A stretch of DNA of 64,000 nucleotides from NCBI GenBank assembly GCA_016287565.1, contig JAEFAM010000001.1:73344-137343 (forward strand), written 5' to 3'. The DNA comes from Clostridia bacterium. GTDB taxonomy: Bacteria > Bacillota > Clostridia > UBA1212 > UBA1255. A program made the position numbers and the translations under genes. Below, one piece after another: positions 12,231-59,320 of this stretch (its first letter is position 1; each line of letters starts with the position of its first letter). Below the pieces are notes generated by a model that had not been told where the DNA came from, made no database searches, and was given only the letters and a program-made list of their open reading frames with translations.

Positions 12231-12259
12231 ATTATATCCTCCGGGGCCGGCGAACGCAA
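12231..12259 (-). promoter_or_regulatory. Putative promoter of the kinase–peptide–PqqD–peptidase operon (TTGCGT – 17 nt – TATAAT). The -35 hexamer lies inside a REP copy.
   Basis: On the minus strand a TATAAT -10 lies about 37 nt upstream of the kinase ATG, and the -35-like hexamer is supplied by the REP core. Confidence 0.3.
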
Positions 12260-12348
12260 GTCTGTCCCCCGTTCGCGCGTTCGGCGCCGGACGCTTGAAA
12301 CGCGAACCTGTCCCCCGTTCGGCGTGTCCCCCGTTCGGCGTGGGGGGA
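12251..12348. repeat. REP-like repeats (inverse orientation, AACGCAAGTCTGTCCCCCGTTCG, 3 copies). Positions 12251-12324 form the first copy of a roughly 72-bp direct repeat.
   Basis: The sequence was read directly. The block is near-identical to 12861-12932. Confidence 0.8.
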
Positions 12349-12447
12349 AGCCCAGGTTGCCTGGCTCCTCGGGCACAGATGAATAAGGTAAGACGCGGAA
12401 CGCAACCAAATGTTGACGCTGCGCTGTCTTGAAACGCTTGATAGGAG

Positions 12448-12493
12448 AAAAACACCCGGAAAACGAGCGCTTTAGTAAAATTCTGGGTGTTTT
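12448..12493. other. Inverted repeat AAAAACACCC ... GGGTGTTTT (stem-loop 1)
   Basis: A 9-bp stem with a loop of about 27 nt. A second, similar copy lies at 12616-12658. Confidence 0.4.
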
Positions 12494-12615
12494 GAGGAAG
12501 GCTGCGCCGTCTCGAAACGCCACACAAACGACAATCTTACAATAATTGCTTTTTTACAGCACATAATTTGCATTTTGACAAATGTCTTGCTGCCAGGGGG
12601 TTGAAAATGAGCGAG

Positions 12616-12658
12616 AAACACCCAAAAATTGAGGTTTTGTTGTGAATTATGGGTGTTT
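12616..12658. other. Inverted repeat AAACACCCA ... TGGGTGTTT (stem-loop 2)
   Basis: It is paralogous to 12448-12493 and is followed by AAGGAAG. Confidence 0.4.
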
Positions 12659-12825
12659 TAAGGAAGCGAGAACTACCTCAACGCCCAAAACGAGCGAGAG
12701 ATATGCGCAAATTGCTTTTTCGAGATAAATTTTCTGCGTTTTAAAGAAAAGCGCCACCCCAAGGCTGTAAGAGGTACCGCCTAAGTCCAAAAAGCGCGGA
12801 ACGAGAACAAAGGGCAGGGACGAAA

Positions 12826-12935
12826 AACGAGAACCTGTCCCCCGTTCGGCGTGGAGAGAGAAACGCAAGTCTGTCCCCCGTTCGCGCGTTCGGTGCCGGA
12901 CGCTTGAAACGAGAACCTGTCCCCCGTTCGGCCGC
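12826..12935. repeat. REP-like repeats (inverse orientation, 3 copies). Positions 12861-12932 form the second copy of the roughly 72-bp direct repeat.
   Basis: The sequence was read directly. Confidence 0.8.
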
Positions 12936-13043
12936 ATCCGTGCCCCGGCGGTCCTTGCCTCCTTCTTTCTCGCCTTGCCCGTTGATTTCCGCTACAGGAA
13001 AAAGATATAATTGACGCGGGAAACAAAAAAGGGGTGACTCGCC

Positions 13044-14267
13044 ATGAACGGGAAAGACAGGCAGATCGTAAGGGAACTTGCCAAACGGTATATGGAATTG
13101 ACCTGCTCGGAAAGGCAGCGGAAAATGGTGAAGCGGATGAGGGACAACAACGATCTTGTCCCGGGAAGGCCGCCGGTGCTGATCGACGAGATCCCGTGGT
13201 ACCAGATGGATATCGACGGCGAACTGATGCTCCGCTGCGAAGACCCGCGGGTCCGGGGCGTGGAGGATCACTTCCGCAAGGCGCTTTTCTATTTCAAGCA
13301 TTTCCCCGGGATCGACAATCTGTACGAGCCGTTTCTAAGGGTGCAGCAGGCGTTGTCCGTGACAGAGAAGGGCATCGGCTTGCCGTCGTACAATATCAGG
13401 CGCACCGACGGACAGAACAATATCATATCGCGGGAGCTGGAGGATCAGTTGGAGGACGAATCCGTGCTGGAGAAGTTCAAGCTGCCGGAAATGACGCCCC
13501 ATCCGGAGATCGACGCGGATAACATAGAATTCCTGACCGACCTGCTGGGCGACGTGATGCCCCTCAGGTTCTTCGGCTATGGTCCCTACTATTTAAATGC
13601 CTGGGACTACATCGCATACGTCCGCGGCGTGGAAGCCATCTACATCGACCTCTACGACCGCCCGGAATACCTGCTGGCCATCGTGCAGAAGCTGGTAGAC
13701 TACGCCAACAAATATCTCGACTATATCGAAGCGAATTTGAAGCCCGACAAGGACGTGGCCTGGCTCCACTGCACGCCCGGCTACATTTCCGGCATGGAAG
13801 ACGGTTTGAAAGGAGTCTGGTTCCGGGACAACGCCCAGCCTCTGGGCAGCATCTCGCCGGCAATGTTCGGCGAATTCGCCATCGACCCGGTGATCGAGCT
13901 GTCGAAGCGGTTCAAATATACGTATTACGGCTGTTGCGAGCCCCTCGACGACAAGATCGAGCAGGTCAAGAAGATCCCGAACCTGCGAAAAGTTGGTTGT
14001 CCCCCCTGGGCAAGCGTGGAAGCCACCGCCGAACAGCTGGGGGGCAATTACGTTCTGTCCCGGAAGCCCAATCCGGCGAAAGTTGCCATCTCCACCGATC
14101 CCGAGGAGATCCGCCGGGAGACAGAGGAGACGGTCAAGGCGTGCCTGAAGCACGGCTGCCCCTACGAACTGGTGCTGAAGGACATCAGCACGGTGAACGG
14201 CTGGCCGGGCAACCTTATCGTCTGGGCCGAGACGGTCAGCGGCGTGCTGAACGGATATTATGATTGA
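13044..14267 (+). CDS. Uroporphyrinogen-decarboxylase (URO-D/MtaA)-family-like protein
   Basis: A 407-aa protein. Its length and scattered motifs resemble the URO-D-like proteins common in gut Clostridia. An AAAGGGGTG ribosome-binding site precedes the start. The function is uncertain. Confidence 0.4.
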   Translation: MNGKDRQIVRELAKRYMELTCSERQRKMVKRMRDNNDLVPGRPPVLIDEIPWYQMDIDGELMLRCEDPRVRGVEDHFRKALFYFKHFPGIDNLYEPFLRVQQALSVTEKGIGLPSYNIRRTDGQNNIISRELEDQLEDESVLEKFKLPEMTPHPEIDADNIEFLTDLLGDVMPLRFFGYGPYYLNAWDYIAYVRGVEAIYIDLYDRPEYLLAIVQKLVDYANKYLDYIEANLKPDKDVAWLHCTPGYISGMEDGLKGVWFRDNAQPLGSISPAMFGEFAIDPVIELSKRFKYTYYGCCEPLDDKIEQVKKIPNLRKVGCPPWASVEATAEQLGGNYVLSRKPNPAKVAISTDPEEIRRETEETVKACLKHGCPYELVLKDISTVNGWPGNLIVWAETVSGVLNGYYD

Positions 14268-14290
14268 CCGGTCGACCGCGCCCGGCGCTT

Positions 14291-14334
14291 TTGCGGACTT
14301 GCGTTCGAACGCGTGACAGACTTGCGTTTCGGCC
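14291..14334. repeat. REP-like repeat (GTGACAGACTTGCGTTTCGG plus a partial copy)
   Basis: The sequence was read directly. Confidence 0.7.
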
Positions 14335-14364
14335 TGATTTGGGCTATTATATTGACGTTGGAGG

Positions 14365-15120
14365 ATGAGCATTATGAGTGAAATGCTGCTTGACAGATAC
14401 CATCGCGCGATAGACGATCTTTTCCGCAAAGTCAGGGAAACTCAGCGGGAAAACATAATAAAGGCAGGGGAGCTCGTGGCCGACAGCGTTGCCAATGGCG
14501 GATGCATTTTCCTGTCGGGCATATGCCACCATATGGAGATGGATTCCATTTACCGCGGCGGCGGCCCCATTTTCTACAAGCATTTCAGCTACGATCTGAA
14601 AGTCGAAAGCGCTGCCAGGCAGAGGGACAGGTCGGATCTGGGATACGAGCGCGAAAGCGCCGCGGCGGCGAAATACGCATTGACCCAGTCGAACGTGCGG
14701 CCCGGAGACGTGCTGTTCGTCAGTTCGGTATCGGGCAGGACGGTAAGAGTCGTCGACCTGGCGTACGAGGCGGAGAAGCTGGGCGTCAAGGTCATAGCCT
14801 TCACGTCAATGGAGTACGCCAGAGAAGTTGAGCCGGTGCATCCCTCCGGCAAAAAGCTGTACGAGATCGCCACGCTAACCATGGACAACTGCGCTCCGGC
14901 GGCCGAGGCAATGCTGGAGGTCGATGGCATCGAGGCCAAATTCGGCGCCGCATCCGGCATCGCGTCGGACTACATAATGTGGAGCATAACCTCCGTTGCC
15001 GTGGAAAAGCTCCTGGAAAAAGGACTCACGCCCGGGATCCTGAAGAGCGCCAACTTCCCGGGGGGCAACGACTACAACAAGACCGTGATCGAGCCTCATT
15101 ACGAACAATACGGCTGGTAA
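14365..15120 (+). CDS. SIS (sugar isomerase) domain protein
   Basis: The SIS-like segments NGGCIFLSG and VLFVSSVSGRTVRVVDLAYEAEKLGVKVIAF are present. A GGAGGATG ribosome-binding site precedes the start. Confidence 0.5.
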   Translation: MSIMSEMLLDRYHRAIDDLFRKVRETQRENIIKAGELVADSVANGGCIFLSGICHHMEMDSIYRGGGPIFYKHFSYDLKVESAARQRDRSDLGYERESAAAAKYALTQSNVRPGDVLFVSSVSGRTVRVVDLAYEAEKLGVKVIAFTSMEYAREVEPVHPSGKKLYEIATLTMDNCAPAAEAMLEVDGIEAKFGAASGIASDYIMWSITSVAVEKLLEKGLTPGILKSANFPGGNDYNKTVIEPHYEQYGW

Positions 15121-15142
15121 GGCGGGGCGGCTGGCTGCGGAT

Positions 15143-15868: not shown

Positions 15869-15873
15869 AAAGG

Positions 15874-16440: not shown

Positions 16441-16444
16441 TCAT

Positions 16445-17772: not shown

Positions 17773-17791
17773 GCCTGTAAATTTTAGCAAT

Positions 17792-17887
17792 ACCCGGGAA
17801 ATACCGGGCGCGGGCGCGTAATATTCCGTAATAACGCGTGATAATCCGTAATAACGTGAGATAACGCGCGGCCGCCGGGAAATAGGA
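17792..17887. promoter_or_regulatory. Tract with 10-bp periodicity (CCGKRAAT / CCGGGAAAT motif, about 9 units) upstream of holB
   Basis: The sequence was read directly (acccgggaaat accgggcgcg ... attccgtaat aacgcgtgat aatccgtaat aacgtgagat ... gccgggaaat). Confidence 0.45.
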
Positions 17888-17888
17888 T

Positions 17889-18926: not shown

Positions 18927-18964
18927 CACAGCGGCGCGGCCGGGCGGTCCGGCAGGAGAGAAAA

Positions 18965-19855: not shown

Positions 19856-19949
19856 GGGACGAATAAAGTTTGCGGTGCGGCAAACGGCGCGGCAAACAGT
19901 ACGGTAAGCAGGACGGCAAACGGGTCTGCAAACGGGATGGAAAGCGAAA

Positions 19950-23367: not shown

Positions 23368-23372
23368 GCGGC

Positions 23373-23402
23373 GGCGAACGGGGGACAGACTTGCGTTCGC
23401 TT
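23373..23402. repeat. REP-like repeat (GCGAACGGGGGACAGACTTGCGTTCGC; the flanks form a 7-bp inverted repeat)
   Basis: The sequence was read directly. Confidence 0.8.
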
Positions 23403-24939: not shown

Positions 24940-25032
24940 TGTAATAACCTCTGTTTCGGTTGGTTTTTGAATGTTGAGATTATAGCGCAAAAATGCGAAA
25001 GTGTCAATCGAAGTGCCGTCAAACGGTTCGCC

Positions 25033-25075
25033 GAACGGGTGACAGACTTGGGGTTCGCACAGACTTGGGTTTCGC
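25033..25075. repeat. REP-like repeats (2 copies, the GTGACAGACTTGG variant)
   Basis: The sequence was read directly. Confidence 0.7.
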
Positions 25076-25271
25076 AGCTAAATTCACCCTTCGGGCGAGC
25101 TAAATTGGATCCTGCGGATCCAGCTAAATTCCGCTGCGCGGAGCTAAATTCGTCCTGACGGACGAGCGATGTGGAAAGGGGACAGACTTGAGTTTCACAG
25201 CTAAATTCACCCTTCGGGTGAGCTAAATTGGATCCTGCGGAGCCGGCTGAATTCGTTCTAAAGAACGAGCG
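25076..25271. repeat. Composite hairpin array. The punctuation AGCTAAATT separates four short GC hairpins (cacccttcgggtg, ggatcctgcggatcc, ccgctgcgcgg, cgtcctgacggacg). There are two tandem units, each primed by a REP copy.
   Basis: The sequence was read directly. The same array, inverted, lies at 30573-30665. Confidence 0.7.
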
Positions 25272-30572: not shown

Positions 30573-30665
30573 GGCTCGTCCGTGAGGACGAATTTAGCTC
30601 CGCGCAGCGGAATTTAGCTGGATCCGCAGGATCCAATTTAGCTCACCCGAAGAGTGAATTTAGCT
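30573..30665. repeat. Composite hairpin array, the inverted copy of 25076-25168
   Basis: The sequence was read directly. The same four hairpins are separated by AATTTAGCT, and the array is followed by two REP copies. Confidence 0.7.
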
Positions 30666-30725
30666 GCGAACGCAAGTCTGTCCCCCGTTCGGCGAGTTGC
30701 GAACGCAAGTCTGTCCCCCGTTCGC
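30666..30725. repeat. REP-like repeats (2 copies, GCGAACGCAAGTCTGTCCCCCGTTCG)
   Basis: The sequence was read directly. Confidence 0.8.
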
Positions 30726-30758
30726 ACCCGTATCATGCAAAAAAATTTTCCGAAACTG

Positions 30759-46357: not shown

Positions 46358-46510
46358 GTGCGAACGGGGGACAGACTTGGGTTTCGGGCGGTCGAATGGT
46401 CCGTCGAACGGGGGACAGACTTGGGTTTCGGGCGGTCGAATGGTCCGTCGAACGGGGGACAGACTTTCGTTCGCCCCCCGGTGGAAAGGGGACAGACTTG
46501 CGATCACCGT
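46358..46510. repeat. REP-like repeat cluster (4 copies, GAACGGGGGACAGACTTGGGTTTCG and variants)
   Basis: The sequence was read directly. Confidence 0.8.
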
Positions 46511-46844: not shown

Positions 46845-46966
46845 CGACGGACAATTATTGCCCGGAATTGTTCCCGGGCAACGCACGATTTTTCAAACAC
46901 GAGGCTGCTTTCCTTTATAGGAACGACAAGCGGCCTCTTGTTTTTTTTGTCTGCCTGGGCTGGAAA

Positions 46967-47065
46967 ACCCAAGTCTGTCACCTTTCCACCGGCAGGTGAA
47001 CGCAAGTCTGTCACCTTTCCACCGGCTGGAAAACGCAAGTCTGTCACTCGTTCGCGGCTGGGTTG
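46967..47065. repeat. REP-like repeat cluster (3 copies, inverse orientation, the GTCACC variant)
   Basis: The sequence was read directly. Confidence 0.75.
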
Positions 47066-48084: not shown

Positions 48085-48180
48085 TAACGGAGACACCTCT
48101 TCTCGTTTTGATGTACGAATTGTAACATATTTGTGAAGCTGTTGGCAAGAGGCCGGCGGACAGGCGGTGGAGGGGCGCGA

Positions 48181-48292
48181 ACAGGGGACAGACTTGGGTT
48201 TCGACCGATTCGCGCGGCGGTGGAAAGGGGACAGACTTCCGTTTCGAACGATTCGACCGATGGTGAACAGGGGACAGACTTCCGTTTCGCCT
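48181..48292. repeat. REP-like repeat cluster (3 copies)
   Basis: The sequence was read directly. Confidence 0.8.
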
Positions 48293-48497: not shown

Positions 48498-48594
48498 ATA
48501 CATATTTTCCGGAATAACGCGGGTTTTTGCTTTGCTTAACGTCGAGGATTTCGGCAAAACGGGGGAGCTGAGAGATACCCGGGCGTACCCGGTA

Positions 48595-48665
48595 AAACGC
48601 AAGTCTGTCACCCGTTCGCCCCCTTGGCAAAGCCTCCGAAACGCAAGTCTGTCACTTTTCCACCG
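48595..48665. repeat. REP-like repeats (2 copies, inverse orientation)
   Basis: The sequence was read directly. Confidence 0.75.
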
Positions 48666-48796
48666 TCACCTTCCACGCCTCTCGCGCCACTTTACTTCCG
48701 CGCCTCCCCATTATATAATCTAAAGTACTAAAGTATGTGCCTCCGATTCGGCGGAGCCGGACGGGGGCGGGACGAAAAGACGGGGGCGGGTTAATA

Positions 48797-50404
48797 ATGA
48801 AAGCAAAAGCAAAAACCCATGACACACAAAACAAAAAGCAGCTCAAAAAGATTGCCGCCGCAGGCATTAGAGTGATATTAGCCGCGCTGATCTGCATGAC
48901 CGTGCTGTTGCCAACGACCGCGTGCAAAAAAGTTGACCCGGACTCGAAATTGCCCACGACAAATATTGCCCCGGCCCCGTTGCCGGCGCAAAAAGAGCCG
49001 AACGACAGCGGCGAACCGGTGACATACACGGTCAACGGGACCATTTCCTCCGATATGGTCGTCCAGCGCAACGCGTATTTTAACGTGTTTGGGCGGTCTG
49101 ACAACCCCGGCGCCGTTATTTACGGCGAGTTTATGGGCGAAAAACGGTACGGGATCGTGGCGGAGGACGGCAGCTGGACGATCCGGTTTTCGTCCCACGA
49201 GGCGGTGAACGAGGGACAGACTTTGGTTATCTACCCGAAAAACGGCGAAAGAACCGAGTTTGAAGACATCCTTGTGGGCGACGTTTGGGTGATCTCCGGA
49301 CAATCGAACGCCGAACTGATGTATATGAGCACCGCGTCGACGACGCCGGAATACGCCAAAGAGATCAACAAAAACGATCTGATCCGCATTTATTCGCAGT
49401 CGCGGCAATCGGTGATGGACGCGTACACCGACGGCCTTGACGTTACGATACCGCAGGAAGACGTGGTCTCGCCGAACACGAAATGGGCCAAAACCACGAC
49501 GCAGACGGTGTTGTCCTTCTCCGCCATCGGTTATTATTTCGGAAAAGAGCTCAGCAAAACCATTGATGTGCCGCTCGGCTTGATCATGGCGGCCTCAGGC
49601 GGGTCAACGCTCCACGAACTGATGCCCGGGGACGTTGCCGCGGAACTCGGATTCACCACGGGCGCCAGCGTCCCGGTCTCCGGCTTCTACAACACGTTGC
49701 TTTATCCGTTTACGCGCAACAAAATTACGGGAATGATCTTTTATCAAGGCGAGAGCGAGAGTGCGGGCGGCCAATACCTTCGTTACGCGGATAATCTGAA
49801 GCGGACGGTCAGCGGTTACCGGCACGCGTGGGGGCTGTGTTTCCCGTTCATCAACGTTCAGCTGAGTACCCACGGCAGTGAAGCCGATTATTACTGGCCC
49901 GAGCTGCCGTACATTCGCGCCGCGCAGTTCGACGCCTACCGCAGCATGCTGAATTCGTACATCGTCACGGCAATGGATCAGGGCTACAGAGCGGGGGATC
50001 CGGACTGGGCGCATCCGCTTTACAAGCTGGAACTGGGCAAGCGCGCGGCAAAAATCGCTGCTTACGTCGTTTACGGCCAGGGGGACGCGGCGCATTCGCT
50101 GGCGCCGGAGCCGGACAAGATCACCTGGAACAGCGACAATTCGATCGTTATCACCTTTAAAAACGTGGGCGACGGAATAACGCTGCTGGAAGGCGACAAG
50201 ATTGCCGGCCTTTACGCACTCGACGAATACGGCGACAAGATGTATTCCGAGATCGAGCAGATAGACGGGTCAACGGTCAAGATCGTTTTGACCCGTGAGC
50301 CTTCTGCGGTGGGTTACGGCATCCGTCAAGACGGGCTGCCGGCCAGCGCCAACATCGCCAGTAGCGACGGGATCCCGATGCCGGCCTTTATTATCAAAAA
50401 GTAA
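48797..50404 (+). CDS. Sialate O-acetylesterase family (SASA/DUF303) lipoprotein
   Basis: A GQSNAE block (the family's GQSNM motif) and the family architecture are present. The start at MKAKAK gives a signal peptide, and the Cys of a likely lipobox follows. Confidence 0.7.
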   Translation: MKAKAKTHDTQNKKQLKKIAAAGIRVILAALICMTVLLPTTACKKVDPDSKLPTTNIAPAPLPAQKEPNDSGEPVTYTVNGTISSDMVVQRNAYFNVFGRSDNPGAVIYGEFMGEKRYGIVAEDGSWTIRFSSHEAVNEGQTLVIYPKNGERTEFEDILVGDVWVISGQSNAELMYMSTASTTPEYAKEINKNDLIRIYSQSRQSVMDAYTDGLDVTIPQEDVVSPNTKWAKTTTQTVLSFSAIGYYFGKELSKTIDVPLGLIMAASGGSTLHELMPGDVAAELGFTTGASVPVSGFYNTLLYPFTRNKITGMIFYQGESESAGGQYLRYADNLKRTVSGYRHAWGLCFPFINVQLSTHGSEADYYWPELPYIRAAQFDAYRSMLNSYIVTAMDQGYRAGDPDWAHPLYKLELGKRAAKIAAYVVYGQGDAAHSLAPEPDKITWNSDNSIVITFKNVGDGITLLEGDKIAGLYALDEYGDKMYSEIEQIDGSTVKIVLTREPSAVGYGIRQDGLPASANIASSDGIPMPAFIIKK

Positions 50405-50433
50405 GAAGCGCCAGCAGGCGCAGACCGGCGCGA

Positions 50434-50580
50434 ACGCGGGACAGACTTGGTTTCGCGCCGACTGTGGACGGGGGACAGACTTTAGGTCCCCCGCCTTTTT
50501 TTGCCGGCGAACGAGGACAGCGAACGGGGGACAGACTTGTGTTTTTGCGGGATGCGAACGCGTGACAGACTTGTATCTCG
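50434..50580. repeat. REP-like repeat cluster (4 copies)
   Basis: The sequence was read directly. Confidence 0.8.
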
Positions 50581-50596
50581 ATAGCCCCATCGTCCG

Positions 50597-51541
50597 CTAC
50601 ATTGGTAATAAAGTAAACAAAGGCAAAGTCGCGAAACAAAAGATCGTCGAAATAAGGATACAGTTCGCGGCAAGTTCGGGATTGACCTTGTAGATCTCCG
50701 AGAAATTCAAAGTGTGCGAGGCGCAAGGCGTTGCCGCAAGTATAACGAGCGTAAGGCGCAGGCCGGGCTGAAAAGGGAGAATTTTCGACAACGGCCAGGT
50801 CAAAAGCCAGCAGAAAAGCGGAAAAGCGATCAATTTTAATGCGGCGGCGAGGTAAACGTTGCCGCGAGTGAATAATTTTTTGAGATCTGACATGGCGAGG
50901 CGTACGCCGACGATAAACATACAAAGCGGGGCCGTCATCGCGGCAAAGTTGGAAGCCATTGACGTTACGGCCGACGGCAGCGAATTGCCCCATCCGAAAA
51001 AGTAGAACGGGAGTGAGATCGCGAGGCCCACGGTGGCGGGGTTCAGGAGCGCGGATCTGACCGAAATGTGGCGTTTGTCGCCGGTCAGGAGGAAAACGCC
51101 CACGGTAAACGTGACGATATTCATCGAAACGATAAACATTGTCGCGCAGCAGAGGGCCAAAGCGTTGCCGGGGAGGATCGCGCGGACAAGCGGGAGGCCG
51201 AAATAGCCAACGTTTCCAAGCACGGAGGCAATATTGACCACCCGAATCGGCTGTTCGATCCGCTTTTTTCCGGCAATCAGATAAAAACCAAGGCAAAAAG
51301 TGAGCTGAGCGGCAAGCGAGATCAGGAAAAACATTCCCATTTGCGCGAGATGTTCCGGTTTATATTCCAGCGAGATGAAGCTCGTGAATTCCAAAAACGG
51401 CGTGCCGATAAAGACCAGGATGCCTGAAAGCGTCGGCAAGTGGTCGGCGAACGCTTTTTTGCATTTGCAGAGGACGAAGCCGGGGACAATGCACGCGAGT
51501 GTTACGAGGACGTTGGTTAGGGCAATCAAAAATGTGTTCAT
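50597..51541 (-). CDS. AEC-family (auxin efflux carrier / malate permease-like) transporter
   Basis: A 314-aa protein with ten transmembrane helices and the duplicated 5+5 architecture typical of the family. Confidence 0.7.
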   Translation of the reverse strand: MNTFLIALTNVLVTLACIVPGFVLCKCKKAFADHLPTLSGILVFIGTPFLEFTSFISLEYKPEHLAQMGMFFLISLAAQLTFCLGFYLIAGKKRIEQPIRVVNIASVLGNVGYFGLPLVRAILPGNALALCCATMFIVSMNIVTFTVGVFLLTGDKRHISVRSALLNPATVGLAISLPFYFFGWGNSLPSAVTSMASNFAAMTAPLCMFIVGVRLAMSDLKKLFTRGNVYLAAALKLIAFPLFCWLLTWPLSKILPFQPGLRLTLVILAATPCASHTLNFSEIYKVNPELAANCILISTIFCFATLPLFTLLPM

Positions 51542-51547
51542 GGCGAG

Positions 51548-51607
51548 TGTGCGAACGAGTGACAGACTTGGTTTTTTGTGGTGCGAACGAGTGACAGACT
51601 TGCGTTT
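51548..51607. repeat. REP-like repeats (2 copies)
   Basis: The sequence was read directly. Confidence 0.75.
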
Positions 51608-51641
51608 TCTCTCTTGCGGTTACTCCTGTTTTAATTCCGTT

Positions 51642-52454
51642 TTATTTGGGGTTAGGCTGTTCAGGCCAAACGAAAGTCGAAGCGAGATTGCTCTCGCCAT
51701 TGTCGATCAGAATGTCAATTCCGGAGGCAGAGCGGTTGACAGCCGTCAAAAACCAGACCCAATCGGCTATTTCCTGCTCTGTTGCCCACTTCTTCAGCGG
51801 GGTAACATCCATTATCTTTGTCCATAAAGCCGGGTCACGCATAACAGGGTCGTTAGATTCGGTTATTACGCCGCCCGGCGATATAGAATTTGCGATCGCG
51901 CCGTATGGCGCAAGTCTGACGGCAACGTTTTTCATATATCCGATCAGGCCGGCTTTGGAGGCAACGTATTCAGGGAATTCAAATCCGGTATGTGCTGAGG
52001 CGGAAGCGCAAAACAGGACGGAGCGTATTTCTGGCTGGAATGCATATTTTTCGGTAACGTTGATGGCGCCTTTGAGGTTGATCATAATATCGTCAGGGGA
52101 ATTTTGCACTCCGGCGCAGATGAAGATGACGTTAGGCGGAGGGAGTGGGGTGTCGGAGGAACTTTCTTCCCCGAAACGCAAGTCTGTCCCCCGTTCGCGC
52201 TCGGATTCGCATAAGCCAGAGGGTCCATCTTTTGCGAAATTCGGGAGTGTTTCCGGGCGTGAAACGTCAACTATATAGTGAGTATATGCATTGTGCGTGA
52301 TCGTTCCGGGCAAAACGTCAAAACCGAAAACGGAGCACCCTTCTTCGAGGTATTTAATTGCCGCGGAGCGGCCTATTCCGCGGGCGGAACCGGTAATAAG
52401 CACTTTGAGAGACCTGTTATTGCCGTTCGAATCGCCGCTTTTCAGTTCATTCAT
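51642..52454 (-). CDS. SDR-family oxidoreductase with an in-frame insertion derived from a REP copy
   Basis: TGSARGIGRS is the glycine-rich NAD(P)-binding motif. The stretch ...GLCESERERGTDLRFGEESS... is encoded by the REP at 52173-52200, and the loop is about 20 aa longer than usual. Confidence 0.65.
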   Translation of the reverse strand: MNELKSGDSNGNNRSLKVLITGSARGIGRSAAIKYLEEGCSVFGFDVLPGTITHNAYTHYIVDVSRPETLPNFAKDGPSGLCESERERGTDLRFGEESSSDTPLPPPNVIFICAGVQNSPDDIMINLKGAINVTEKYAFQPEIRSVLFCASASAHTGFEFPEYVASKAGLIGYMKNVAVRLAPYGAIANSISPGGVITESNDPVMRDPALWTKIMDVTPLKKWATEQEIADWVWFLTAVNRSASGIDILIDNGESNLASTFVWPEQPNPK

Positions 52455-53197
52455 CTTGCCACGTCCTTTCCGGAAAGTTGTTTTTCAAGTTCGAAATACT
52501 CATCACCGACCCCCAACCGCTTCCAGCGTTTGCAGATGGCGTACCCGGCGGGCGAGAAAACCACCTCCATGAGAAGTTCCAGAGAGGCTCCGATGAGTGA
52601 ACAGGTGACAGACTGGAGGAACGTCCAGTGGAAGCCGTTCCAAAAGATCGGAGCAAACACCATGAAGGTCAAAATGGCAAAGATGAGGTTGTCAACGAAT
52701 TGACCGATGAAGGTGGACGCATAGCTGCGAACGAAAAAAGCGATTTTGCCGTCGGGGTTTGCTCTAAACAGCTTGCCAACCGCAAAATTTAAGAAATTGT
52801 TGACAAGAGAAGAGAGGAAAAACGCAATCGTGCTGCTGAGCAGTATGAACCAGGTGCCGCCGAGGATCTCGTTGAAAGCAGTGTAATCCGCGTCGACGCC
52901 GGGAGTCGGAATTATGCTGACAATGTAGAAAATCAGGCAAACGAGCAGGTTCGTGGCGATAGCAAAAACCGACAATTTCGTTGCCGCCCTTGGGCCGAAG
53001 TGTTTTGTGACGACGTCCATGCACAAAAATGAGATCCACGAAACAAGAATTCCTCCGTCAATTGCCAGAAATCCCGTCTGGATCAGCGTTTTGTTGGCGA
53101 GAAGGTTCATTGTGACAACGGAAATTGCAAAAATGGCAACCACCGGCGATGGTATGGCGCGGAATAGTGCCGAAGTAAGGCGGATTTTTTGCTTCAT
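52451..53197 (-). CDS. Queuosine-precursor transporter (YhhQ/DUF165 family)
   Basis: Its length, six transmembrane helices and conserved pattern fit the family. A GGAG ribosome-binding site precedes the start. Confidence 0.55.
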   Translation of the reverse strand: MKQKIRLTSALFRAIPSPVVAIFAISVVTMNLLANKTLIQTGFLAIDGGILVSWISFLCMDVVTKHFGPRAATKLSVFAIATNLLVCLIFYIVSIIPTPGVDADYTAFNEILGGTWFILLSSTIAFFLSSLVNNFLNFAVGKLFRANPDGKIAFFVRSYASTFIGQFVDNLIFAILTFMVFAPIFWNGFHWTFLQSVTCSLIGASLELLMEVVFSPAGYAICKRWKRLGVGDEYFELEKQLSGKDVAR

Positions 53198-53291
53198 TTG
53201 TTTTTCTCCTTGGTTTTATTTTATAGAGCGAAGGATTTAGAGGCCGAACTTCGCTTTGCGCAATCGTCAAGCTGTCATGAACCGGTGAACT

Positions 53292-54525
53292 CAGTGAACT
53301 TGGGACAGACTTCCGTTGCCTGGATATTCTATCACTTCTGGCCTGTATAGTTCAATAACGAAAAAAACGATTCGATTGACCGGCTTTATTGTCGTTTTTT
53401 GGCAAATTGACGAGAGAAAAAAGCGATTTGGACGATGCTGAGTATGCTGCGTCAAAAAAAGCAAAAGGATACACACAGTTGTAAGCCGGGCTGACTAAAA
53501 GGCAACAACCTTGAACGCAAAATTAATTGACATGTTGTGTTTTCTGTTATCAGATCAACGCGAAAAAAGCAACAAACAACTCTTTCACATTACGATTTTT
53601 CAAATTGTTGTCGCGTTCCGGCGCTAACAGGCCAGCTCTGCCCATTTAAAGACGGTACTTTTGCTCTTCGCCAGGAATTGACCGATTTGCTTGTAAGTCA
53701 GGCCGCGCATTCGGAATTGCCGTATACAGTCGAAAAGTCGGTTCAACCCCATACCGAGAAGCTGCGCGCCGTTATAGCAGGCGGAGAGTGTTTGCATAAT
53801 TTCGAATGAATATTCATCAATGACCCGCGGCTTCAGCTTTTCGGAGAGTTCAATGCAGCGAGATTCCTCGTCGGTCGTCGGACTGCAAGAGTGAAAAAAC
53901 GCAAATTCCGGCTGGGCAATCGCCTCAAAAACGTAATCACGGTCAATCAAAGTGTTGTTGTCGCTGAAAAAGCAGCGAAAACTGCTATCTGCGTAATCTC
54001 CCGCCCGACTGACGAGCCCAGCTTTGACCGGATTGTTGTGAATATATCTGACCAGCGTCCTAAAATAGGCGAGATCCTCCACGACTTCGCTTTTGAAGCG
54101 GTTCTGAAACAGGTGGCCGCAGCGGTCGTATTTGGCGTTGTACCAGCGCACGAACCGGCATTCAAGTTTTTGCATAAATTTGCTGATCAGGCCGCATTCC
54201 GGCTCGCGCAACAACAGATGCACGTGATTCGACATAAAACAATAGGCAAAAACGTTAAAATTGTACTCTTTTTTCAAATCGCCAAGGATAAACAAAAACT
54301 TTTTAATATCGAGCCGGTCAATAAACACTTTCTCCCTGTTATTGCCTCTCAGCATGACATGGTAAGTGCCGGACACGCTCATTTGTCGTGGCATAGTGGG
54401 CATGGTCAATACCTCCATATTTAGTTTTTGGTGGGTACATTCAGATGCTGCAAGCGAGCCCGATTGTATCAGTTTGCATCAGCCTTGTCAACGAAAAAAA
54501 CAGAAGTCTGTCCCCCGTTCGCGGC
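53292..54525 (-). mobile_element. REP–RAYT unit: the tyrosine transposase gene is flanked by inverted REP copies (53292-53315 and 54495-54525)
   Basis: The flanking repeats GGGACAGACTTCCGTT and AAGTCTGTCCCCCGTTCG are in opposite orientations. Confidence 0.7.
53624..54403 (-). CDS. REP-associated tyrosine transposase (RAYT; IS200/Y1-like) with a C-terminal HTH
   Basis: It has YHVMLRGNNREKVF, the HuH motif (FMSNHVHLLL), the catalytic Tyr region (NRF...YIHNNPVKAGLV), and a C-terminal LTYKQIGQFLAKSKSTVFKW. The start was chosen at MPTMPRQ, which has a GGAGGT ribosome-binding site. Confidence 0.8.
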   Translation of the reverse strand: MPTMPRQMSVSGTYHVMLRGNNREKVFIDRLDIKKFLFILGDLKKEYNFNVFAYCFMSNHVHLLLREPECGLISKFMQKLECRFVRWYNAKYDRCGHLFQNRFKSEVVEDLAYFRTLVRYIHNNPVKAGLVSRAGDYADSSFRCFFSDNNTLIDRDYVFEAIAQPEFAFFHSCSPTTDEESRCIELSEKLKPRVIDEYSFEIMQTLSACYNGAQLLGMGLNRLFDCIRQFRMRGLTYKQIGQFLAKSKSTVFKWAELAC

Positions 54526-54548
54526 CCTTGTTCGCACCCGCGTTCGCA

Positions 54549-54577
54549 TTGACATCGGCGCCCCGAACTGGTACAAT
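54549..54577 (+). promoter_or_regulatory. Consensus sigma-A promoter upstream of smc (TTGACA – 17 nt – TACAAT)
   Basis: Perfect hexamers with a 17-nt spacer. Confidence 0.55.
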
Positions 54578-54603
54578 AGCCGGTGCGAAGGCGGTGTAAA
54601 GCA

Positions 54604-57600
54604 TTGTACCTAAAGCGACTCGAGATGCAGGGCTTCAAGTCATTCGTTGACAAGACAGTATTGGAATTCAGCAACGGCATAACGGCGATTGTCGGCCCGA
54701 ACGGCAGCGGAAAAAGCAACATTTCCGATGCCGTTAAATGGGTATTGGGCGAACAGAGCCCCAAGACGCTCCGAGGCAGCCGGATGGAAGACATGATCTT
54801 CGCGGGGACCCAGAGCCGCAAGCCCACGGGAATGTGCGAAGTGTCGCTGATCATGGACAACGAAGACCGGGCGCTGAATATTGACTATCTCGAAGTGCGG
54901 GTGACCAGGCGCCTCTACCGGTCTGGCGAGAGCGAGTACCTGATCAACGGGGCGCAATGCAGGCTGAAGGACATAGTGATGCTGTTCGCGGACACGGGTA
55001 TTGGCCGCGACGGTTATTCGCTGATCGGGCAGGGCAGGATCGACGAGATCCTGAGCACCAAGTCGGAAGAGCGGCGGAACATTTTCGAGGACGCGTCGGG
55101 CATTATGAAATACAGGATCCGCCGGAACGAAGCCGAAAGGAAACTTGCCGCCACGGAGCAGAACCTGCTGCGCATAAGTGACATCGTGAACGAGCTGGAA
55201 GCCCAGATCAAACCCCTGGAAAAACAAAGCGAAGTTGCCCGGAAATATCTTGCCCTCCGTTACGAACTCAGGGACATCGAGGTGGGCGTGCTCAGCGAAA
55301 CGATCACGCGGGCCGAGGACAATCTCGAAGTCATCAACAGGAATATTGACACGGTCAATTCGGACAGGGCGGAGGCCAACGCCGCGCTGGAGGCGCTGAG
55401 GCAGGAAAACGAGTCGAAATTGGAATTGTCCCGCCAGCTTGACGGCCTGATCGCCAAGCTCCGGAGCGACCAGTCGGAGCACGAAAAGCGGATCGAGCGC
55501 ATCAACGGCGAGATCGCGCTGAACAATGAAAAGATCGTCCACGCGAAAGAGGAAACTCAGCGGGCGGACACGGAAAAAGCCACGGAGACCGGCAGGATCG
55601 AGGCCCACAGGCAGGAGATCGACCGTCTGAAAGCGGAGATCGAGGCGCTTGACGGCCAGATAAACGAGATCCGGGCGAAAAGCCGGGCCCAGGAAGAACT
55701 CCTGAACAAGACCGACGGGGAATTGACCGCGGCGGAAGCGAAAAAAGAGGAGATCCGGACGGAACTGGTGCGTCTCAGGCTGGATCTGGGCGAAAAAAAC
55801 AGCAAGGCAGAAGCCGCGAAAGCGCAGATCGGCATGGTGACCGAGCGAAAAGCCGCCCTGGACGTGGAACTGAAGGCGATCCAGGAAAGCGACAGCGCAG
55901 GAGCCGGAGAACTGGGCGAAGCGGAAAAAGAATATATTGACGCGGGCAACGCCGCTTCCGACGCGAAGCAGGAGTACCAGAACAACGAAGGCCGCCTGGC
56001 CGCCCTGAGGACCGCCATCGACGAGGCCAACCGGGAGATCACGTCCCTGACAGGCAGCATGCAGAGCCTGAACGCCCAGTGCAAGCTGCTGAAAGAGATG
56101 GAGGAAGGGTACGAGGGCTACGCCAGAAGCGTTAAAGAAGTGCTCCAGGCCTGCAAAAAGAACCCGGCGTTCGGCGACGGGATCTACGGCGCGGTGGCAC
56201 AGCTCATCACGGTGCCCAAAGAATACGAACTGGCGGTGGAAACGGCGCTGGGGCAGAGCTACCAGAATATAATCACCGAGACCGAGGACGAGACAAGGGC
56301 CGCTATCAATTTCCTGAAAGAACATAGATTCGGACGCGCCACGTTCATGCCGCTCACGGCGGTGACCGGAAAGCGCCTGGACGAGCAGCTGCAGCGAGAA
56401 CTCCGTGCTATGCGGGGGTACAGAGGCATTGCCAGCGACAGAGTGGAATGCGAAGCAAAATTCCGACCGGCCGCAGACAGTCTGCTGGGAAGAGTTGCCC
56501 TTTTCGAGACGCTGGACGACGCGATCGACGCGGCGAAAAAGTATAAATATCAGTTCATGTGCGTGTCCCTCGAAGGCGACATCCTGAGAACGTCCGGCGC
56601 CATCACCGGCGGCGCGGCCGAACGCGGCGCAAAGACCACCGGAGCATTGTCACGGACACGCGAGATCCCCAGGCTGGAGAAGGAGCTGGACGAGGCTTCC
56701 AAAAAGGTGGAAAAGCTTTACAAGAAGCTGTCGGACAATAAAGCCGAGGCGGCCTTGCTGTCGGAGAGCCAGACGGCAAGATTCGAGCAGCTGAGGGAGC
56801 TGGAGCGTGCAGCGTCAACGGCGGCGGCGAAGGTGGCGGCCCTGCGGGAGAGGCAGGAAGGCAGGCGGACCAGACGGGCGAGCCTGGTGGAAGAGCTCAA
56901 AGGGCAGATCACACTGGTGCAGTCGTTGTCCGGGCAGGTGGAGTCCTTCGGAGCCGAAGCGGCGGACATTGCCGCGGCCATAACGGAGGCGGAAAAGCAG
57001 CTGGAAGGCGCGGCGACGGAGGCGGAAAGCGTACGGGCAAGGCGCGAGACGGTCAGCAACGCGCTGTTCGCTATTAAAATTGACGAAAACCGGGTGTGCG
57101 CGGCCAGGCAGAAAGCGGCGGACGACGCGGAAGGCCTCGGGCGCGAGATAGAAACGTTGACCGAAAAGATCGCGTTATACGAATCATCTGCTTCCGAGAA
57201 CGCGGACAACATCAGGTCGCTCCAGGCGGATATCCGGGATCTGGAAACGAAACGGGCGGTGTCGGAACTTGACGCGGCGGATGCGGCGGAAAAACTGGAA
57301 GGCGTCGAGAAGCGCAAATCGGAGACCGACCAGGCCCTGGGCGGTATGCTCACCAGGATCACCGAGATCAACACCCGCATCACCAATATAGAGCAGGAAG
57401 CCAACCGGCTGGAGATCCAGAAGGTGCGCTGCGAAAACGAGATCAATACCGGCCGCAACAGGCTGTGGGAAGAGTACGAACTGACGCTCACCGCCGCCAA
57501 AGAGCTGGCAAAAGACATCGTTATCGAGAACTATAAAGAATCTGCGGCGCGGATCGTGGAGCTCAGAGCGGCCATCAAGGCACTTGGCCCGGTAAACGTC

Positions 57601-58185
57601 AACGCCGTGGAGGAGTACGAGGCCACGGTCACGCGGTACAAGTTCCTTTCCGAGCAGAGCCGCGATATGACGGAGGCCCGGACGAAGCTCAAGAAGACGG
57701 TCGACGAGCTGACGGAGGTCATGCAGCGTCAATTTTCCGAGCAGTTCCAGATCATCCGCGCCAATTTCAACCAGGTGTTCGTTGAGCTGTTCGGCGGCGG
57801 CAAGGCAGATATCGTGTTGTCGGACAACGGCTCCGGCTCTGGCGTGCTGGATTGTGGCATCGACATCAACGTCCAGCCTCCGGGTAAAAAGCTCCAGAAC
57901 ATGCTTTTGTTGTCCGGCGGCGAGCGCGCCCTCACGGCTATTGCGCTGTTGTTCGCGATCCTGCGCATGCGGCCTTCTCCTTTCTGCCTGCTGGACGAGA
58001 TCGAGGCGGCGCTGGACGACGCCAACGTCTACCGGCTGTCCGACTACCTTTCCGGTGTTTCGAAGGAGACGCAGTTCATTATGGTCACCCACAGGAAGGG
58101 CACGATGGAGTACGCCGGGTCGCTGTACGGCGTGACGATGGAGGAAAAAGGTATTTCGAGAGTGGTCTCGCTGAAGATGGAATGA
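54604..58185 (+). CDS. smc: Chromosome partition protein SMC
   Basis: The N-terminus YLKRLEMQGFKSF, Walker A (GPNGSGKSN), long coiled coils, a hinge, and the C-terminal LSGGE and Walker B are present. The TTG at 54604 was preferred over the track's GTG at 54583 because of the promoter position. Confidence 0.9.
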   Translation: MYLKRLEMQGFKSFVDKTVLEFSNGITAIVGPNGSGKSNISDAVKWVLGEQSPKTLRGSRMEDMIFAGTQSRKPTGMCEVSLIMDNEDRALNIDYLEVRVTRRLYRSGESEYLINGAQCRLKDIVMLFADTGIGRDGYSLIGQGRIDEILSTKSEERRNIFEDASGIMKYRIRRNEAERKLAATEQNLLRISDIVNELEAQIKPLEKQSEVARKYLALRYELRDIEVGVLSETITRAEDNLEVINRNIDTVNSDRAEANAALEALRQENESKLELSRQLDGLIAKLRSDQSEHEKRIERINGEIALNNEKIVHAKEETQRADTEKATETGRIEAHRQEIDRLKAEIEALDGQINEIRAKSRAQEELLNKTDGELTAAEAKKEEIRTELVRLRLDLGEKNSKAEAAKAQIGMVTERKAALDVELKAIQESDSAGAGELGEAEKEYIDAGNAASDAKQEYQNNEGRLAALRTAIDEANREITSLTGSMQSLNAQCKLLKEMEEGYEGYARSVKEVLQACKKNPAFGDGIYGAVAQLITVPKEYELAVETALGQSYQNIITETEDETRAAINFLKEHRFGRATFMPLTAVTGKRLDEQLQRELRAMRGYRGIASDRVECEAKFRPAADSLLGRVALFETLDDAIDAAKKYKYQFMCVSLEGDILRTSGAITGGAAERGAKTTGALSRTREIPRLEKELDEASKKVEKLYKKLSDNKAEAALLSESQTARFEQLRELERAASTAAAKVAALRERQEGRRTRRASLVEELKGQITLVQSLSGQVESFGAEAADIAAAITEAEKQLEGAATEAESVRARRETVSNALFAIKIDENRVCAARQKAADDAEGLGREIETLTEKIALYESSASENADNIRSLQADIRDLETKRAVSELDAADAAEKLEGVEKRKSETDQALGGMLTRITEINTRITNIEQEANRLEIQKVRCENEINTGRNRLWEEYELTLTAAKELAKDIVIENYKESAARIVELRAAIKALGPVNVNAVEEYEATVTRYKFLSEQSRDMTEARTKLKKTVDELTEVMQRQFSEQFQIIRANFNQVFVELFGGGKADIVLSDNGSGSGVLDCGIDINVQPPGKKLQNMLLLSGGERALTAIALLFAILRMRPSPFCLLDEIEAALDDANVYRLSDYLSGVSKETQFIMVTHRKGTMEYAGSLYGVTMEEKGISRVVSLKME

Positions 58186-58244
58186 CGCACTGGCGGTTAA
58201 GCGCTGCCGGGGGCTTTGAAAGCCGCCGGCACTTTTAAGGCCCT

Positions 58245-58275
58245 GGGGCGAACGGGGGACAGACATGGGTTTTTT
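58245..58275. repeat. REP-like repeat variant (GAACGGGGGACAGACATGGGTTTTT) that overlaps the ftsY start codon
   Basis: The sequence was read directly. Confidence 0.6.
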
Positions 58276-59176
58276 TGAAAAATTGAAGGCCGGGCTGAAG
58301 AAGACCCGGGAAGGTTTTAAGAATAGATTGAATATGATCCTGGCCGGTTTCGGCAAGGTCGACGAGGACCTGTTCGACGAGCTGGAAGAACTGCTGATCA
58401 CGTCCGATTTCGGCGTCGAGACCACCGAACGGCTGATGGAGAGGCTCCGGGCGCGCGTCAAGGAAGGCCGTATCGTCGACCCTGCGCAGGTGGAAGAGGC
58501 GCTTCGCGAGGAGATCGCGGCAATGCTTTCAAAGGGCGAGCAGGGGCTCGATACAGAAGCGGTGCCTGTGCTGATCTCCGTGATCGGGGTCAACGGCGTG
58601 GGCAAGACCACTTCTATCGGCAAGATGGCCTACCTTTACAAGAACGCCGGGAAGCGTGTCCTGCTGGCGGCCGGCGATACTTTCCGTGCTGCTGCGATCG
58701 ATCAGCTGGCCGTCTGGGCCCAGCGCGCGGGCGTCGATATGATCAGCCAGTCCGAAGGCGCCGATCCGGCGGCAGTGCTGTTCGACGCGTGCCGCAGCGC
58801 CAGGGCGAAGGGCGTCGATGTGCTGATCTGCGACACTGCGGGGCGGCTGCACAACAAAAAGAACCTCATGGACGAGCTGGCCAAAATGAACCGCGTAGCC
58901 GAGCGCGAAATGGCCGGCGTGCGCCACGAAACATTCCTGGTGCTCGACGCGGCAACAGGCCAGAACGCCGTGAATCAGGCGCGAGCCTTTTCCGAAGTGG
59001 CCGGGATCACCGGCATCATCCTGACGAAGCTTGACGGCTCGTCAAAAGGCGGCATCGTGGTGTCGATCTGCGAGGAGCTGGGCATTCCCGTGCGCCTGGT
59101 CGGCGTAGGCGAAGGCATCGGCGACCTGCAGCCCTTCGTGCCCGAAGAGTTCGCAAAAGCGCTGTTCGAGGGCTGA
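58265..59176 (+). CDS. ftsY: Signal recognition particle receptor FtsY
   Basis: The N-terminus [18 protein letters not shown] is typical of Firmicutes FtsY. The SRP GTPase NG domain is present ([19 protein letters not shown]). Confidence 0.95.
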
Positions 59177-59248
59177 TCCGGGGCAACGTCAAATCTAAAC
59201 GGGGACAACAGGGGACGGACTACGGTTCGTCTCCTTTTTCTATGCCTT

Positions 59249-59320
59249 GGGCCTGAAAAACGCAAGTCTGTCACCTGTTCACCCGAGAGCCGCCTGACGG
59301 CGAACGCAAGTCTGTCACCT
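59249..59320. repeat. REP-like repeats (2 copies, inverse orientation, the GTCACC variant)
   Basis: The sequence was read directly. Confidence 0.75.

Follow-up and report, generated by a model that had tools for sequence, protein, structure and literature searches.

The DNA analyzed here (the window) is a stretch of 64,000 nt from Clostridia bacterium assembly GCA_016287565.1 (contig JAEFAM010000001.1, positions 73,344 to 137,343 of the forward strand). It is ordinary core chromosome, encoding rpoB, rpoC, holB, uvrC, hrcA-grpE-dnaK-dnaJ, ackA, smc, ftsY, and three tRNAs, and a clostridial host agrees with RpoB, which is 76–80% identical to that of Clostridia/Clostridiales metagenome-assembled genomes and ~71% identical to that of Acetivibrio/Petroclostridium. 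The window also holds a single-copy gene for a Y1 (HUH) tyrosine transposase, and a dispersed family of short repeats with the core GGGGACAG. Knowledge of repetitive extragenic palindromic (REP) sequences and of REP-associated tyrosine transposases (RAYTs) comes almost wholly from Proteobacteria and from REPs of the GTAG type. An annotation of the window made from its letters alone (the original prediction) had described gene and repeats as exactly the REP/RAYT arrangement. Our analysis points to a different type of system, in which the repeats are probably short non-autonomous derivatives of the terminal inverted repeats (TIRs) of a resident, single-copy Y1 HUH transposase gene of the TIRYT type.

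The Y1 Transposase Gene and Its Protein

The Y1 gene (Table 1) encodes a protein of the 259–264 aa length class; its start was placed at 54403 (259 aa) because of a GGAGG ribosome-binding site and the length of homologue P0001 (259 aa). The protein matches Pfam Y1_Tnp (PF01797; E=3e-18) and scores 74.5 bits against NCBIfam REP_Tyr_transpos (NF047646), under the cut-off of 80, and 21.8 bits against transpos_IS200, vs. a cut-off of 55. The HUH and Tyr catalytic residues are present and intact: across 37 homologues (alignment A1, which residue numbers follow), the motifs YH..R, HVH (H64-x-H66), and YIHNNP at 124–129 (Y124---N128P129) are invariant, an SS pair (144–145) after the Tyr helix is nearly invariant, and a C-terminal GLSxRQI… helix-turn-helix (HTH) is conserved. 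The match of this HTH to HTH_23 is weak (E=0.008), and homologues are annotated with PF13384, PF02796, or PF04545. In an AlphaFold2 model (pLDDT 91), the helices at 200–262 are confident, and a Foldseek comparison with the PDB gave a TnpA_REP-like fold, with 4ER8 (E. coli TnpA_REP with REP hairpin) as the top match (E=5e-9, TM 0.70) and IS200, IS608, and ISDra2 TnpA as runners-up (~1e-5). A sequence search of the PDB with the protein returned 4ER8 as the sole hit.

The gene lies between inverted repeat copies, as had been predicted. The bracketing pair is 22 nt long (53296–53317 and 54499–54520) and 86% complementary; the upstream arm bears GGGGACAG, and the downstream arm is degenerate (TGGGACAG). 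The 16-mer that flanks the Y1 gene, CGAACGGGGGACAGAC, is also the commonest one in the whole window, where it occurs 12 times. Domain annotation of the window proteins revealed no other transposase or recombinase genes. A separate candidate RAYT at 58265–59176, also bracketed by inverted copies, was rejected, this gene being FtsY.

The Repeat Family

Repeats were counted in the window, and with 8 kb past its end ~72 kb of host DNA was covered in all. The core 17-mer GGGGACAGACTTGCGTT, with up to two mismatches, has 27 matches vs. 0 in 100 shuffles, and an nhmmer profile made from these matches gave 44 hits, 34 of them at E<1e-3. When truncated copies are added (six further profile hits) and two coding look-alikes taken out, the best estimate is ~38 copies; this bears out the predicted abundance of at least 35, and all coordinates previously listed for copies were recovered within a few bases. 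A position-frequency matrix, aligned on the anchor GACAGAC (up to one mismatch allowed), yields the consensus G[CT]GAAC[GA]GG[GT]GACAGACTTG[CG]GTT[TC], and the variant already noted in the original prediction, a G→T polymorphism directly before the anchor (GGTGACAG), occurs in 13 of 34 copies. Both orientations are represented (21 + and 13 −), as had been claimed, with copies arranged singly or in direct arrays of two to four units at a spacing of 32–35 or 43–44 nt; all nine multi-copy clusters are same-strand arrays. There is no strand bias relative to the rising GC skew in the window, either by copies or by loci (9 vs. 8).

Non-coding DNA makes up 11% of the window, yet it holds 31 of the 34 copies (binomial P=8e-27), which upholds the suspected intergenic bias. 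The gene map used for this test was hand-curated by selecting open reading frames (ORFs) on GC content at third codon positions (GC3), and was cross-checked against Joint Genome Institute (JGI) gene calls on the same DNA. Divergent promoter regions contain 14 of the 31 intergenic copies, and by our own reading the orientation to adjacent genes is inconsistent (10 loci sense, 4 antisense). Three hits are in coding sequence: the one at 52172 is a true in-frame insertion, and those at 49201 and 52596, which are inside sequence conserved in the orthologous genes of a related species, may be repeat look-alikes. The repeats also give rise to spurious ORFs with RGTDL.F and TGDRL.F peptides, again as predicted.

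Searches at Rfam gathering thresholds identified only the three tRNAs in the window, and no RNA family accounts for the repeats. Across 185,579 species genomes, whose GTDB representatives do not include the host organism or its family, GAACGGGGGACAGACTTG had five isolated matches in unrelated taxa. A metagenome scan gave 14 loci, mostly with single matches and without the window's own contig among those returned, and turned up a sister family (GCAACGGGGGACAGACCCCCGTTGC) in contigs with accessions beginning JAEEG (loci L008, L011, and L019). As a literature string, the core sequence matched only unrelated papers.

Pairing of Gene and Repeats in Related Clostridia

The decisive evidence for a link between gene and repeats, judged by sequence comparison, comes from the loci of relatives; percentages given with these loci are identities of their Y1 protein to that of the window. 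In five other Clostridia homologue lineages, GGGGAC[AG]G repeats flank the Y1 gene, with arms that are lineage-specific, and every homologue locus examined is paired in this manner, such that gene and repeat co-vary across lineages. L034 (94%) has kept both flanking repeats in the same places. L022/L023 (63%) carry a sister family, GTGCGCAGGGGACAGAGTT, with arrays spaced at 41/30 nt and, upstream of the Y1 gene, inverted copies. In L025 (44%), inverted doublets lie to either side of the gene, and 18 AAGTGGGCAGGGGGACAGGTACC copies fall within 15 kb, with 33-nt arrays; L033 (48%) has an inverted doublet upstream of the gene, 11 copies of GTGGGACAGGGGACAGGTCC in 13 kb, and likewise 33-nt arrays. 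Repeats are amplified near the gene in three of the five lineages (L022, L025, and L033). In the low-copy lineages L027 and L032, repeats were found around the gene only: L027 (45%) has two identical Y1 gene copies, each closely bracketed by ACACAGGGGACGGTTCTGTGT, and L032 (38%) has GAAGACAGGGGACGGTGGCTTGTCTT in a stack on the upstream side of the gene and in inverted orientation on the downstream side. The gene-flanking repeats of both have the core variant GGGGACGG. Inverted doublets adjoin the gene in L023, L025, and L033. In L027 and L032, TTGACA comes right after the proximal repeat; in L023 and L033 it lies further downstream, and none is marked in L025.

The gene order SMC - Y1 - Vut_1 - SDR - Mem_trans - SASA is common to the homologues at 94 and 63% identity. 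Together with the single copy in the window, this synteny points to a resident, vertically inherited Y1 gene.

Clustering and Possible Homogenization of Repeat Copies

Extragenic amplification is concentrated near the Y1 gene. Between 46.2 and 59.5 kb (within ~8 kb of the gene), repeats occupy every one of the 10 intergenic gaps that measure 75 bp or more, vs. 5 of 19 elsewhere (Fisher p=2e-4), and the repeat density per kb of non-coding DNA is ~5x higher near the gene. No copies were found at 1–12.2 kb, at 31–46 kb, or in the 8 kb past the window end.

Within the array that starts at 46358, the first two 44-nt units (46362–46449) are identical, apparently through a recent local duplication. 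At orthologous sites the heads of the repeats are species-specific, with GAACG in the window vs. GCGCA in L022; this applies to two intergenic arrays, the Y1 upstream region, and the in-frame site in a short-chain dehydrogenase (SDR) gene, and points to homogenization, or else to repeated re-use of the same sites. The SDR gene (51642–52454, −) contains a unit that encodes the peptide SERERGTDLRFGEE, and the L022 counterpart (2590–2610) is at the same codon position, in a variable insertion loop; the site reads GCGAACGGGGGACAGACTTGCG in the window and GCGCAGGGGACAGACTTCGCG in L022, in the same codon frame. The Pfam SDR match of this gene spans residues 123–253 only.

One of the two coding look-alikes (49201–49232, +) is in a SASA-domain gene, within the conserved coding sequence …EAVNEGQTLVIYP…, and has a counterpart in L022 (5783–5804). 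Its sole differing codon, AAC vs. CGC, mirrors the species heads GAACG vs. GCGCG, possibly by coincidence and possibly through conversion by repeat copies.

Structure of the Repeat Unit

A ~27-nt core is contained in a unit of 33 or 44 nt, and the gaps between the ~27-nt units of an array (6–17 nt) are themselves repeated. Folded as DNA, the consensus GCGAACG-G-GGG-ACAGA-CTT-G-CGTTCGC reaches −7.7 kcal/mol and forms 7-bp arms (GCGAACG/CGTTCGC), and its inner GGG/CTT stem relies on G·T wobbles that are possible on the G-rich strand only. In the window, head and core are more strongly conserved than the palindrome, and the 3′ arm has decayed to GTTT[CT] in most copies. The sister family in L008/L019, GCAACGGGGG-ACAGA-CCCCCGTTGC, represents a perfect form of the same hairpin (−13 kcal/mol or lower). 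The arms vary by lineage and are complementary in most (GCGAACG/CGTTCGC, ACACAG/CTGTGT, AAGACA/TGTCTT, and GCAACGGGGG/CCCCCGTTGC). Recognition of a hairpin by the Y1 enzyme is thus suggested by the consensus, by the complementarity that arms show in most lineages, and by the behavior of TnpA_REP and TnpA_IS200, rather than by statistics within the family.

Repeat Loci and Neighboring Features

Table 1. The Y1 gene, its promoter-like site, and the repeat loci of the window.
Feature	Positions	Strand	Remarks
Cluster of one full and two truncated units (GAACGGGGGACAGGTTC type)	12248..12337	−	
Cluster	12835..12931	−	includes 12862–12932, a 97%-identical duplicate of the 71-nt composite at 12253–12323
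Single unit, head partial	14296..14332	+	
Single unit with perfect 7-bp arms	23370..23402	+	3 nt past a stop codon
Units at 25030 and 25170, partial unit at 25059	25030..25200	+	interleaved with AGCTAAATT-hairpin linker module 25076–25165
Tandem pair (30697, 30665), then AGCTAAATT-hairpin module	30575..30728	−	module at 30665–30575
Direct array, 4 units	46358..46508	+	spacing 44, 44, 33; first two 44-nt units identical
Direct array, 3 units	46959..47058	−	period 33 nt
Direct array, 3 units	48175..48291	+	period 43 nt; upstream of tRNA-Ser
Two units	48591..48666	−	spacing 44 nt
Array of 4 units	50428..50573	+	orthologous gap of L022 likewise has 4, with own head sequence
Two units	51549..51610	+	spacing 32 nt; orthologous gap of L022 has 4 units
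Intragenic in-frame unit, short-chain dehydrogenase gene	52172..52200	−	peptide ERGTDLRF; site also occupied in L022 orthologue
Downstream terminal repeat of Y1 gene (GTGAACTTGGGACAGACTTCCGTT)	53292..53322	+	inverted vs. upstream repeat; ~300 nt beyond stop codon; kept in L034
TIRYT-type Y1 (HUH) tyrosine transposase gene, 259 aa	53624..54403	−	ORF reaches upstream ATG 54418; TnpA_REP-like catalytic N-terminus and C-terminal helix-turn-helix
Promoter-like site TTGACA-17-TACAAT of Y1 gene	54463..54491	−	11/12 matches; between upstream repeat and gene; 16 nt downstream of repeat core
Upstream terminal repeat of Y1 gene (GCGAACGGGGGACAGACTTCTGTTT)	54496..54525	−	on gene strand; kept in L034 (94%-identical homologue)
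Single unit between smc and ftsY	58245..58275	+	
Two units	59253..59323	−	spacing 44 nt; upstream of tRNA-Thr

Several features adjoin these loci. The divergent smc promoter (54549–54577, +) has the same TTGACA-17-TACAAT sequence as the Y1 promoter, and in L023 an 87-nt inverted repeat (2365–2451 and 2599–2685; 94% complementary), which includes repeat units, takes up the corresponding region, the two promoters there being mirror copies. The block from Mem_trans to Y1 (Mem_trans - SDR - Vut_1 - Y1; 50597–54403) has a GC content of 0.49 vs. 0.565 for the window and a GC3 of 0.55–0.66 vs. ~0.75, yet it is syntenic in the relatives with 63 and 94% Y1 identity. Directly upstream of the Vut_1/YhhQ-type transporter gene (52451–53197) is a PreQ1-I-like riboswitch candidate (53204–53258, −), which scores 16.7 bits vs. 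a gathering score of 39 for RF00522; L022 and L034 keep its sequence with hardly a change, and its gene context is in agreement.

A second module adjoins the 3′ end of some repeat units, at 25076–25165 (+), 25199–25260 (+), and 30575–30665 (−), and in L019 at 1800–1890 (−). It consists of four tandem units, each of AGCTAAATT plus a short perfect hairpin, and the hairpins all differ (CACCCTTCGGGTG, GGATCCTGCGGATCC, CCGCTGCGCGG, and CGTCCTGACGGACG). The two full blocks are ~97% identical, and all 10 exact AGCTAAATT sites of the window are at these two loci. L019, which has the sister repeat family, shows the same layout with AGC[TG]AAATT and other hairpins, the stems of which are still perfect. 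As RNA, the module folds at −36.2 kcal/mol (z=−2.2) and has no Rfam match; it could be a mosaic piece resembling the linkers of bacterial interspersed mosaic elements (BIMEs), or a structured RNA. Two JGI contigs with the locus (47 and 96 kb) both stop at ~25.08 kb (25076–25079), inside the repeat/AGCTAAATT cluster, and these ends look like repeat-induced assembly breaks.

The 71-nt composites at 12253–12323 and 12862–12932, each of one full and one truncated unit (GAACGGGGGACAGGTTC), are 609 bp apart and 97% identical. Between them (12324–12861) are 538 bp of AT-richer non-coding DNA with an internal repeat of 166 bp (AAACACCC…GGGTGTTT motifs) and no Rfam hit even at E<=1. ATGAGCGAGAAA from this stretch recurs in L031, a relative with 88% RpoB identity, as a 20-bp tandem of five copies (9480–9579). 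L031, of which the 15 kb sampled are free of the GGGGACAG family, also has a triple repeat of 33-nt period at 9041–9141 (CCGATCGTCCGGGACAATGTCCGGC…), with a GGGACA-containing hairpin, possibly a more distant relation of the repeat family.

Relationship to Known Systems

RAYT-like genes flanked by TIRs instead of GTAG REPs were described and named TIRYT/TIRtron by Di Nocera et al. (2013; PMC3733652). Many of their terminal repeats have GGGGWSAS in common, and some TIR families, in S. maltophilia and K. versatilis, are “moderately abundant” as singles, dimers, or clusters (PMC3733652). TIRYT corresponds to TnpA_Y1 subclass 2.1, for which Y---NP is the class-2 signature; proteins of this subclass are long and combine a Ser motif with an HTH at the C-terminus (Bac_DnaA_C, HTH_23, or HTH_28), and REP-like sequences were not found adjacent to their genes (Quentin et al., 2018; PMC6006769). 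RAYT Group 1 is large and widespread, including in Clostridia, and has some traits of insertion sequences (ISs), the highest duplication rate among RAYTs, and flanking 16-mers with only ~12 replicon-wide occurrences (Bertels et al., 2017; PMC5581495). Because GGGGACAG fits GGGGWSAS exactly and the window protein has the features of subclass 2.1, we interpret the locus as a TIRYT/TIRtron with an amplified repeat family.

Like TIRYT/TIRtron systems, the window has a RAYT-like HUH Y1 protein that exceeds classical RAYTs in length and bears a C-terminal HTH as well as a Ser motif behind the catalytic Tyr; its gene is flanked by inverted GGGGWSAS repeats, further copies of which occur as singles, dimers, and clusters. 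The window differs in its uncultured Clostridia host, a far higher local copy density (34 in 64 kb), head-to-tail arrays spaced at 33/44 nt, and a core placed between short complementary arms. It is consistent with RAYT Group 1 as a mixed family, resident in the window and duplicated in L027, although 64 kb alone contain 12 occurrences of the flanking 16-mer, vs. the ~12 reported replicon-wide. The original prediction had also suggested that such a Clostridia pair may be undescribed. This applies to the particular repeat family and its abundance; the class of system, a RAYT relative, is already known (TIRYT; Group 1 in Clostridia). New here are the many copies that a RAYT class reported to be REP-poor attains in Clostridia, together with the direct 33/44-nt arrays, the clustering at the gene, and the species-specific heads at orthologous sites.

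Alternative Interpretations

The locus resembles the REP/BIME-TnpA_REP system of E. coli (RayT/YafM; 4ER8) and the REPIN-RAYT systems of Pseudomonas (Groups 2 and 3; REPINs are inverted REP doublets) in that the catalytic domain finds its closest counterpart there, in structure as well as in sequence, and in that a single-copy, vertically inherited gene has its own extragenic flanking repeats, which are non-autonomous and lineage-specific. It is improbable, however, that the locus is itself a classical proteobacterial REP/RAYT system (REPtron), in which palindromic GTAG REPs are moved as REPINs or BIMEs by a Group 2/3 RAYT. Such a system would explain an extragenic, high-copy repeat with a single-copy Y1 gene between inverted copies, and E. 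coli TnpA_REP and REP_Tyr_transpos are indeed the best PDB and NCBIfam matches; yet the consensus has neither a GTAG guide nor a CGTC tag and its core fits the TIRYT motif instead, most copies are poor palindromes, the window has direct head-to-tail arrays and neither inverted doublets nor alternating BIME order, the NCBIfam score is under the equivalog cut-off, and the C-terminal HTH is extra to classical RAYTs. The claim of an exact REP/RAYT arrangement is not sustained on these grounds. Unlikely as well, if a little less so, is an active, horizontally moving IS-like element (an autonomous TIRtron with derivatives like miniature inverted-repeat transposable elements). HUH/Tyr chemistry and fold are shared with IS200/IS605 TnpA (IS608, ISDra2), as probably is the recognition of a sub-terminal hairpin on one strand; the L027 locus has an IS-like appearance, its two identical gene copies being tightly bracketed by ACACAGGGGACGGTTCTGTGT, the 50.6–54.4 kb block is lower in GC, plasmid-borne distant homologues exist, and the high duplication rate of Group 1 (PMC5581495) fits. 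In the window, by comparison, the protein has the class-2 Y---NP, there is no tnpB, the gene is present in one copy with the same chromosomal neighbors at 94 and 63% protein identity, and, with a degenerate downstream repeat ~300 nt past the stop codon, the gene itself hardly resembles a compact mobile unit.

Alternatively, the repeats could be functional elements of the host (protein-binding sites, terminators, mRNA stabilizers, or nucleoid-organizing sites, possibly HTH-bound) that spread by slippage or recombination, with the Y1 gene as a bystander. Head and core are better conserved than the palindrome, as for a sequence-specific binding site, and 14 of the 31 intergenic copies are in divergent promoter regions; slippage is compatible with the 33/44-nt phasing and with the identity of adjacent units, and some copies are terminator-like (e.g., 54520–54498). 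A bystander gene is nevertheless unlikely where six lineages pair gene and repeat with the same GGGGAC[AG]G core and different arms, where low-copy L027 and L032 have repeats only around the gene, and where orientation to neighboring genes is inconsistent; we rank this between the IS-like element and the classical REP/RAYT system in probability. A role in the host and spread driven by the Y1 enzyme are compatible with each other. Scarcely credible is a DNA-uptake-type or Chi-type genomic word, or a set of CRISPR-like arrays: the density (~0.5 per kb) is in the range of uptake sequences and the arrays are regularly spaced, but the intergenic bias is extreme (P~1e-26), whereas such words are common in genes, and the would-be spacers are 6–17 nt long and themselves repeated, with no cas domains in the window and no Rfam match.

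Several observations weigh against the derivation of the repeats from the TIRs of the Y1 gene. The flanking pair alone could be due to chance in the window, because repeats fill most nearby gaps. Outside the gene neighborhood there are only 8 solid copies in ~50 kb and none in the 8 kb beyond the window end, and the densities in L025 and L033, sampled within 10 kb of the gene only, may reflect local clustering and not genome-wide abundance. The predicted 7-bp inverted flanks hold for the consensus, but only ~8 of 34 window copies form a stable hairpin, and minimum free energies of the copies are no better than those of tail-shuffled controls (Wilcoxon p=0.71). There is no insertion polymorphism among four assemblies of the same strain: the window DNA matches JGI metagenome contigs and JAEEGI010000426.1 (GCA_016295045.1), and three other assemblies show identities of 99.98% or more, their arrays being free of indels. 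Relatives identified by RpoB (91, 88, and 80% identity) show no GGGGACAG family in the 15–24 kb sampled, a negative that is uninformative because the window's own rpoB neighborhood is repeat-free. Finally, the locus would belong to TIRYT/subclass 2.1, and probably to Group 1 of Bertels et al., by shared features and not by a tree.

Proposed Mechanism

By analogy with TnpA_REP and IS608/ISDra2, the Y1 enzyme would bind the G-rich strand of a unit where this is exposed as single-stranded DNA at the replication fork and folded into a hairpin. The short arms would present GGGGACAG at the top of this hairpin, with G·T wobbles operating on the G-rich strand only. Cleavage would proceed via Tyr124, with H64 and H66 holding the metal ion, and the cut end would be rejoined to another unit. 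Such rejoining could place units beside existing ones, generating head-to-tail arrays of 33/44-nt spacing, and could also seed intergenic sites not yet occupied, with a preference for the surroundings of the Y1 gene. Exchange of heads between copies would keep the family uniform within a genome while it diverges between species (concerted evolution). More speculatively, the HTH tail might add recognition of duplex DNA (GGGGACAG) or repress the gene's own promoter; autoregulation is proposed because the upstream repeat sits 16 nt from the −35 box of the Y1 gene.

Implications

A tentative wider reading, which we hold possible with somewhat less than even confidence, is that an uncultured Clostridia clade hosts a vertically inherited partnership resembling REPIN/RAYT that arose independently from TIRYT (subclass 2.1/Group 1), with ~33-nt units of invariant GGGGACAG amplified into direct arrays, above all near the gene, and actively homogenized by the resident enzyme; orthologous sites of sister species, the in-frame one included, would for this reason each bear the head of their own species. 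Surveys have found the largest RAYT-like class (subclass 2.1/Group 1/TIRYT) with few or no associated repeats; the window locus, together with L022, L025, and L033, indicates that the same class can go with dense repeat families in Clostridia. Such families have practical consequences, in that they break metagenome assemblies (two contigs ending at ~25.08 kb), inflate ORF calls (the Mem_trans N-terminus in L022 and spurious ORFs at 46.2–47.2 kb), and insert in frame into a gene. The system also offers a Gram-positive test bed for the recognition of non-GTAG targets by HUH Y1 enzymes, the role of the HTH tail, and the possible enzyme-driven concerted evolution of repeats.

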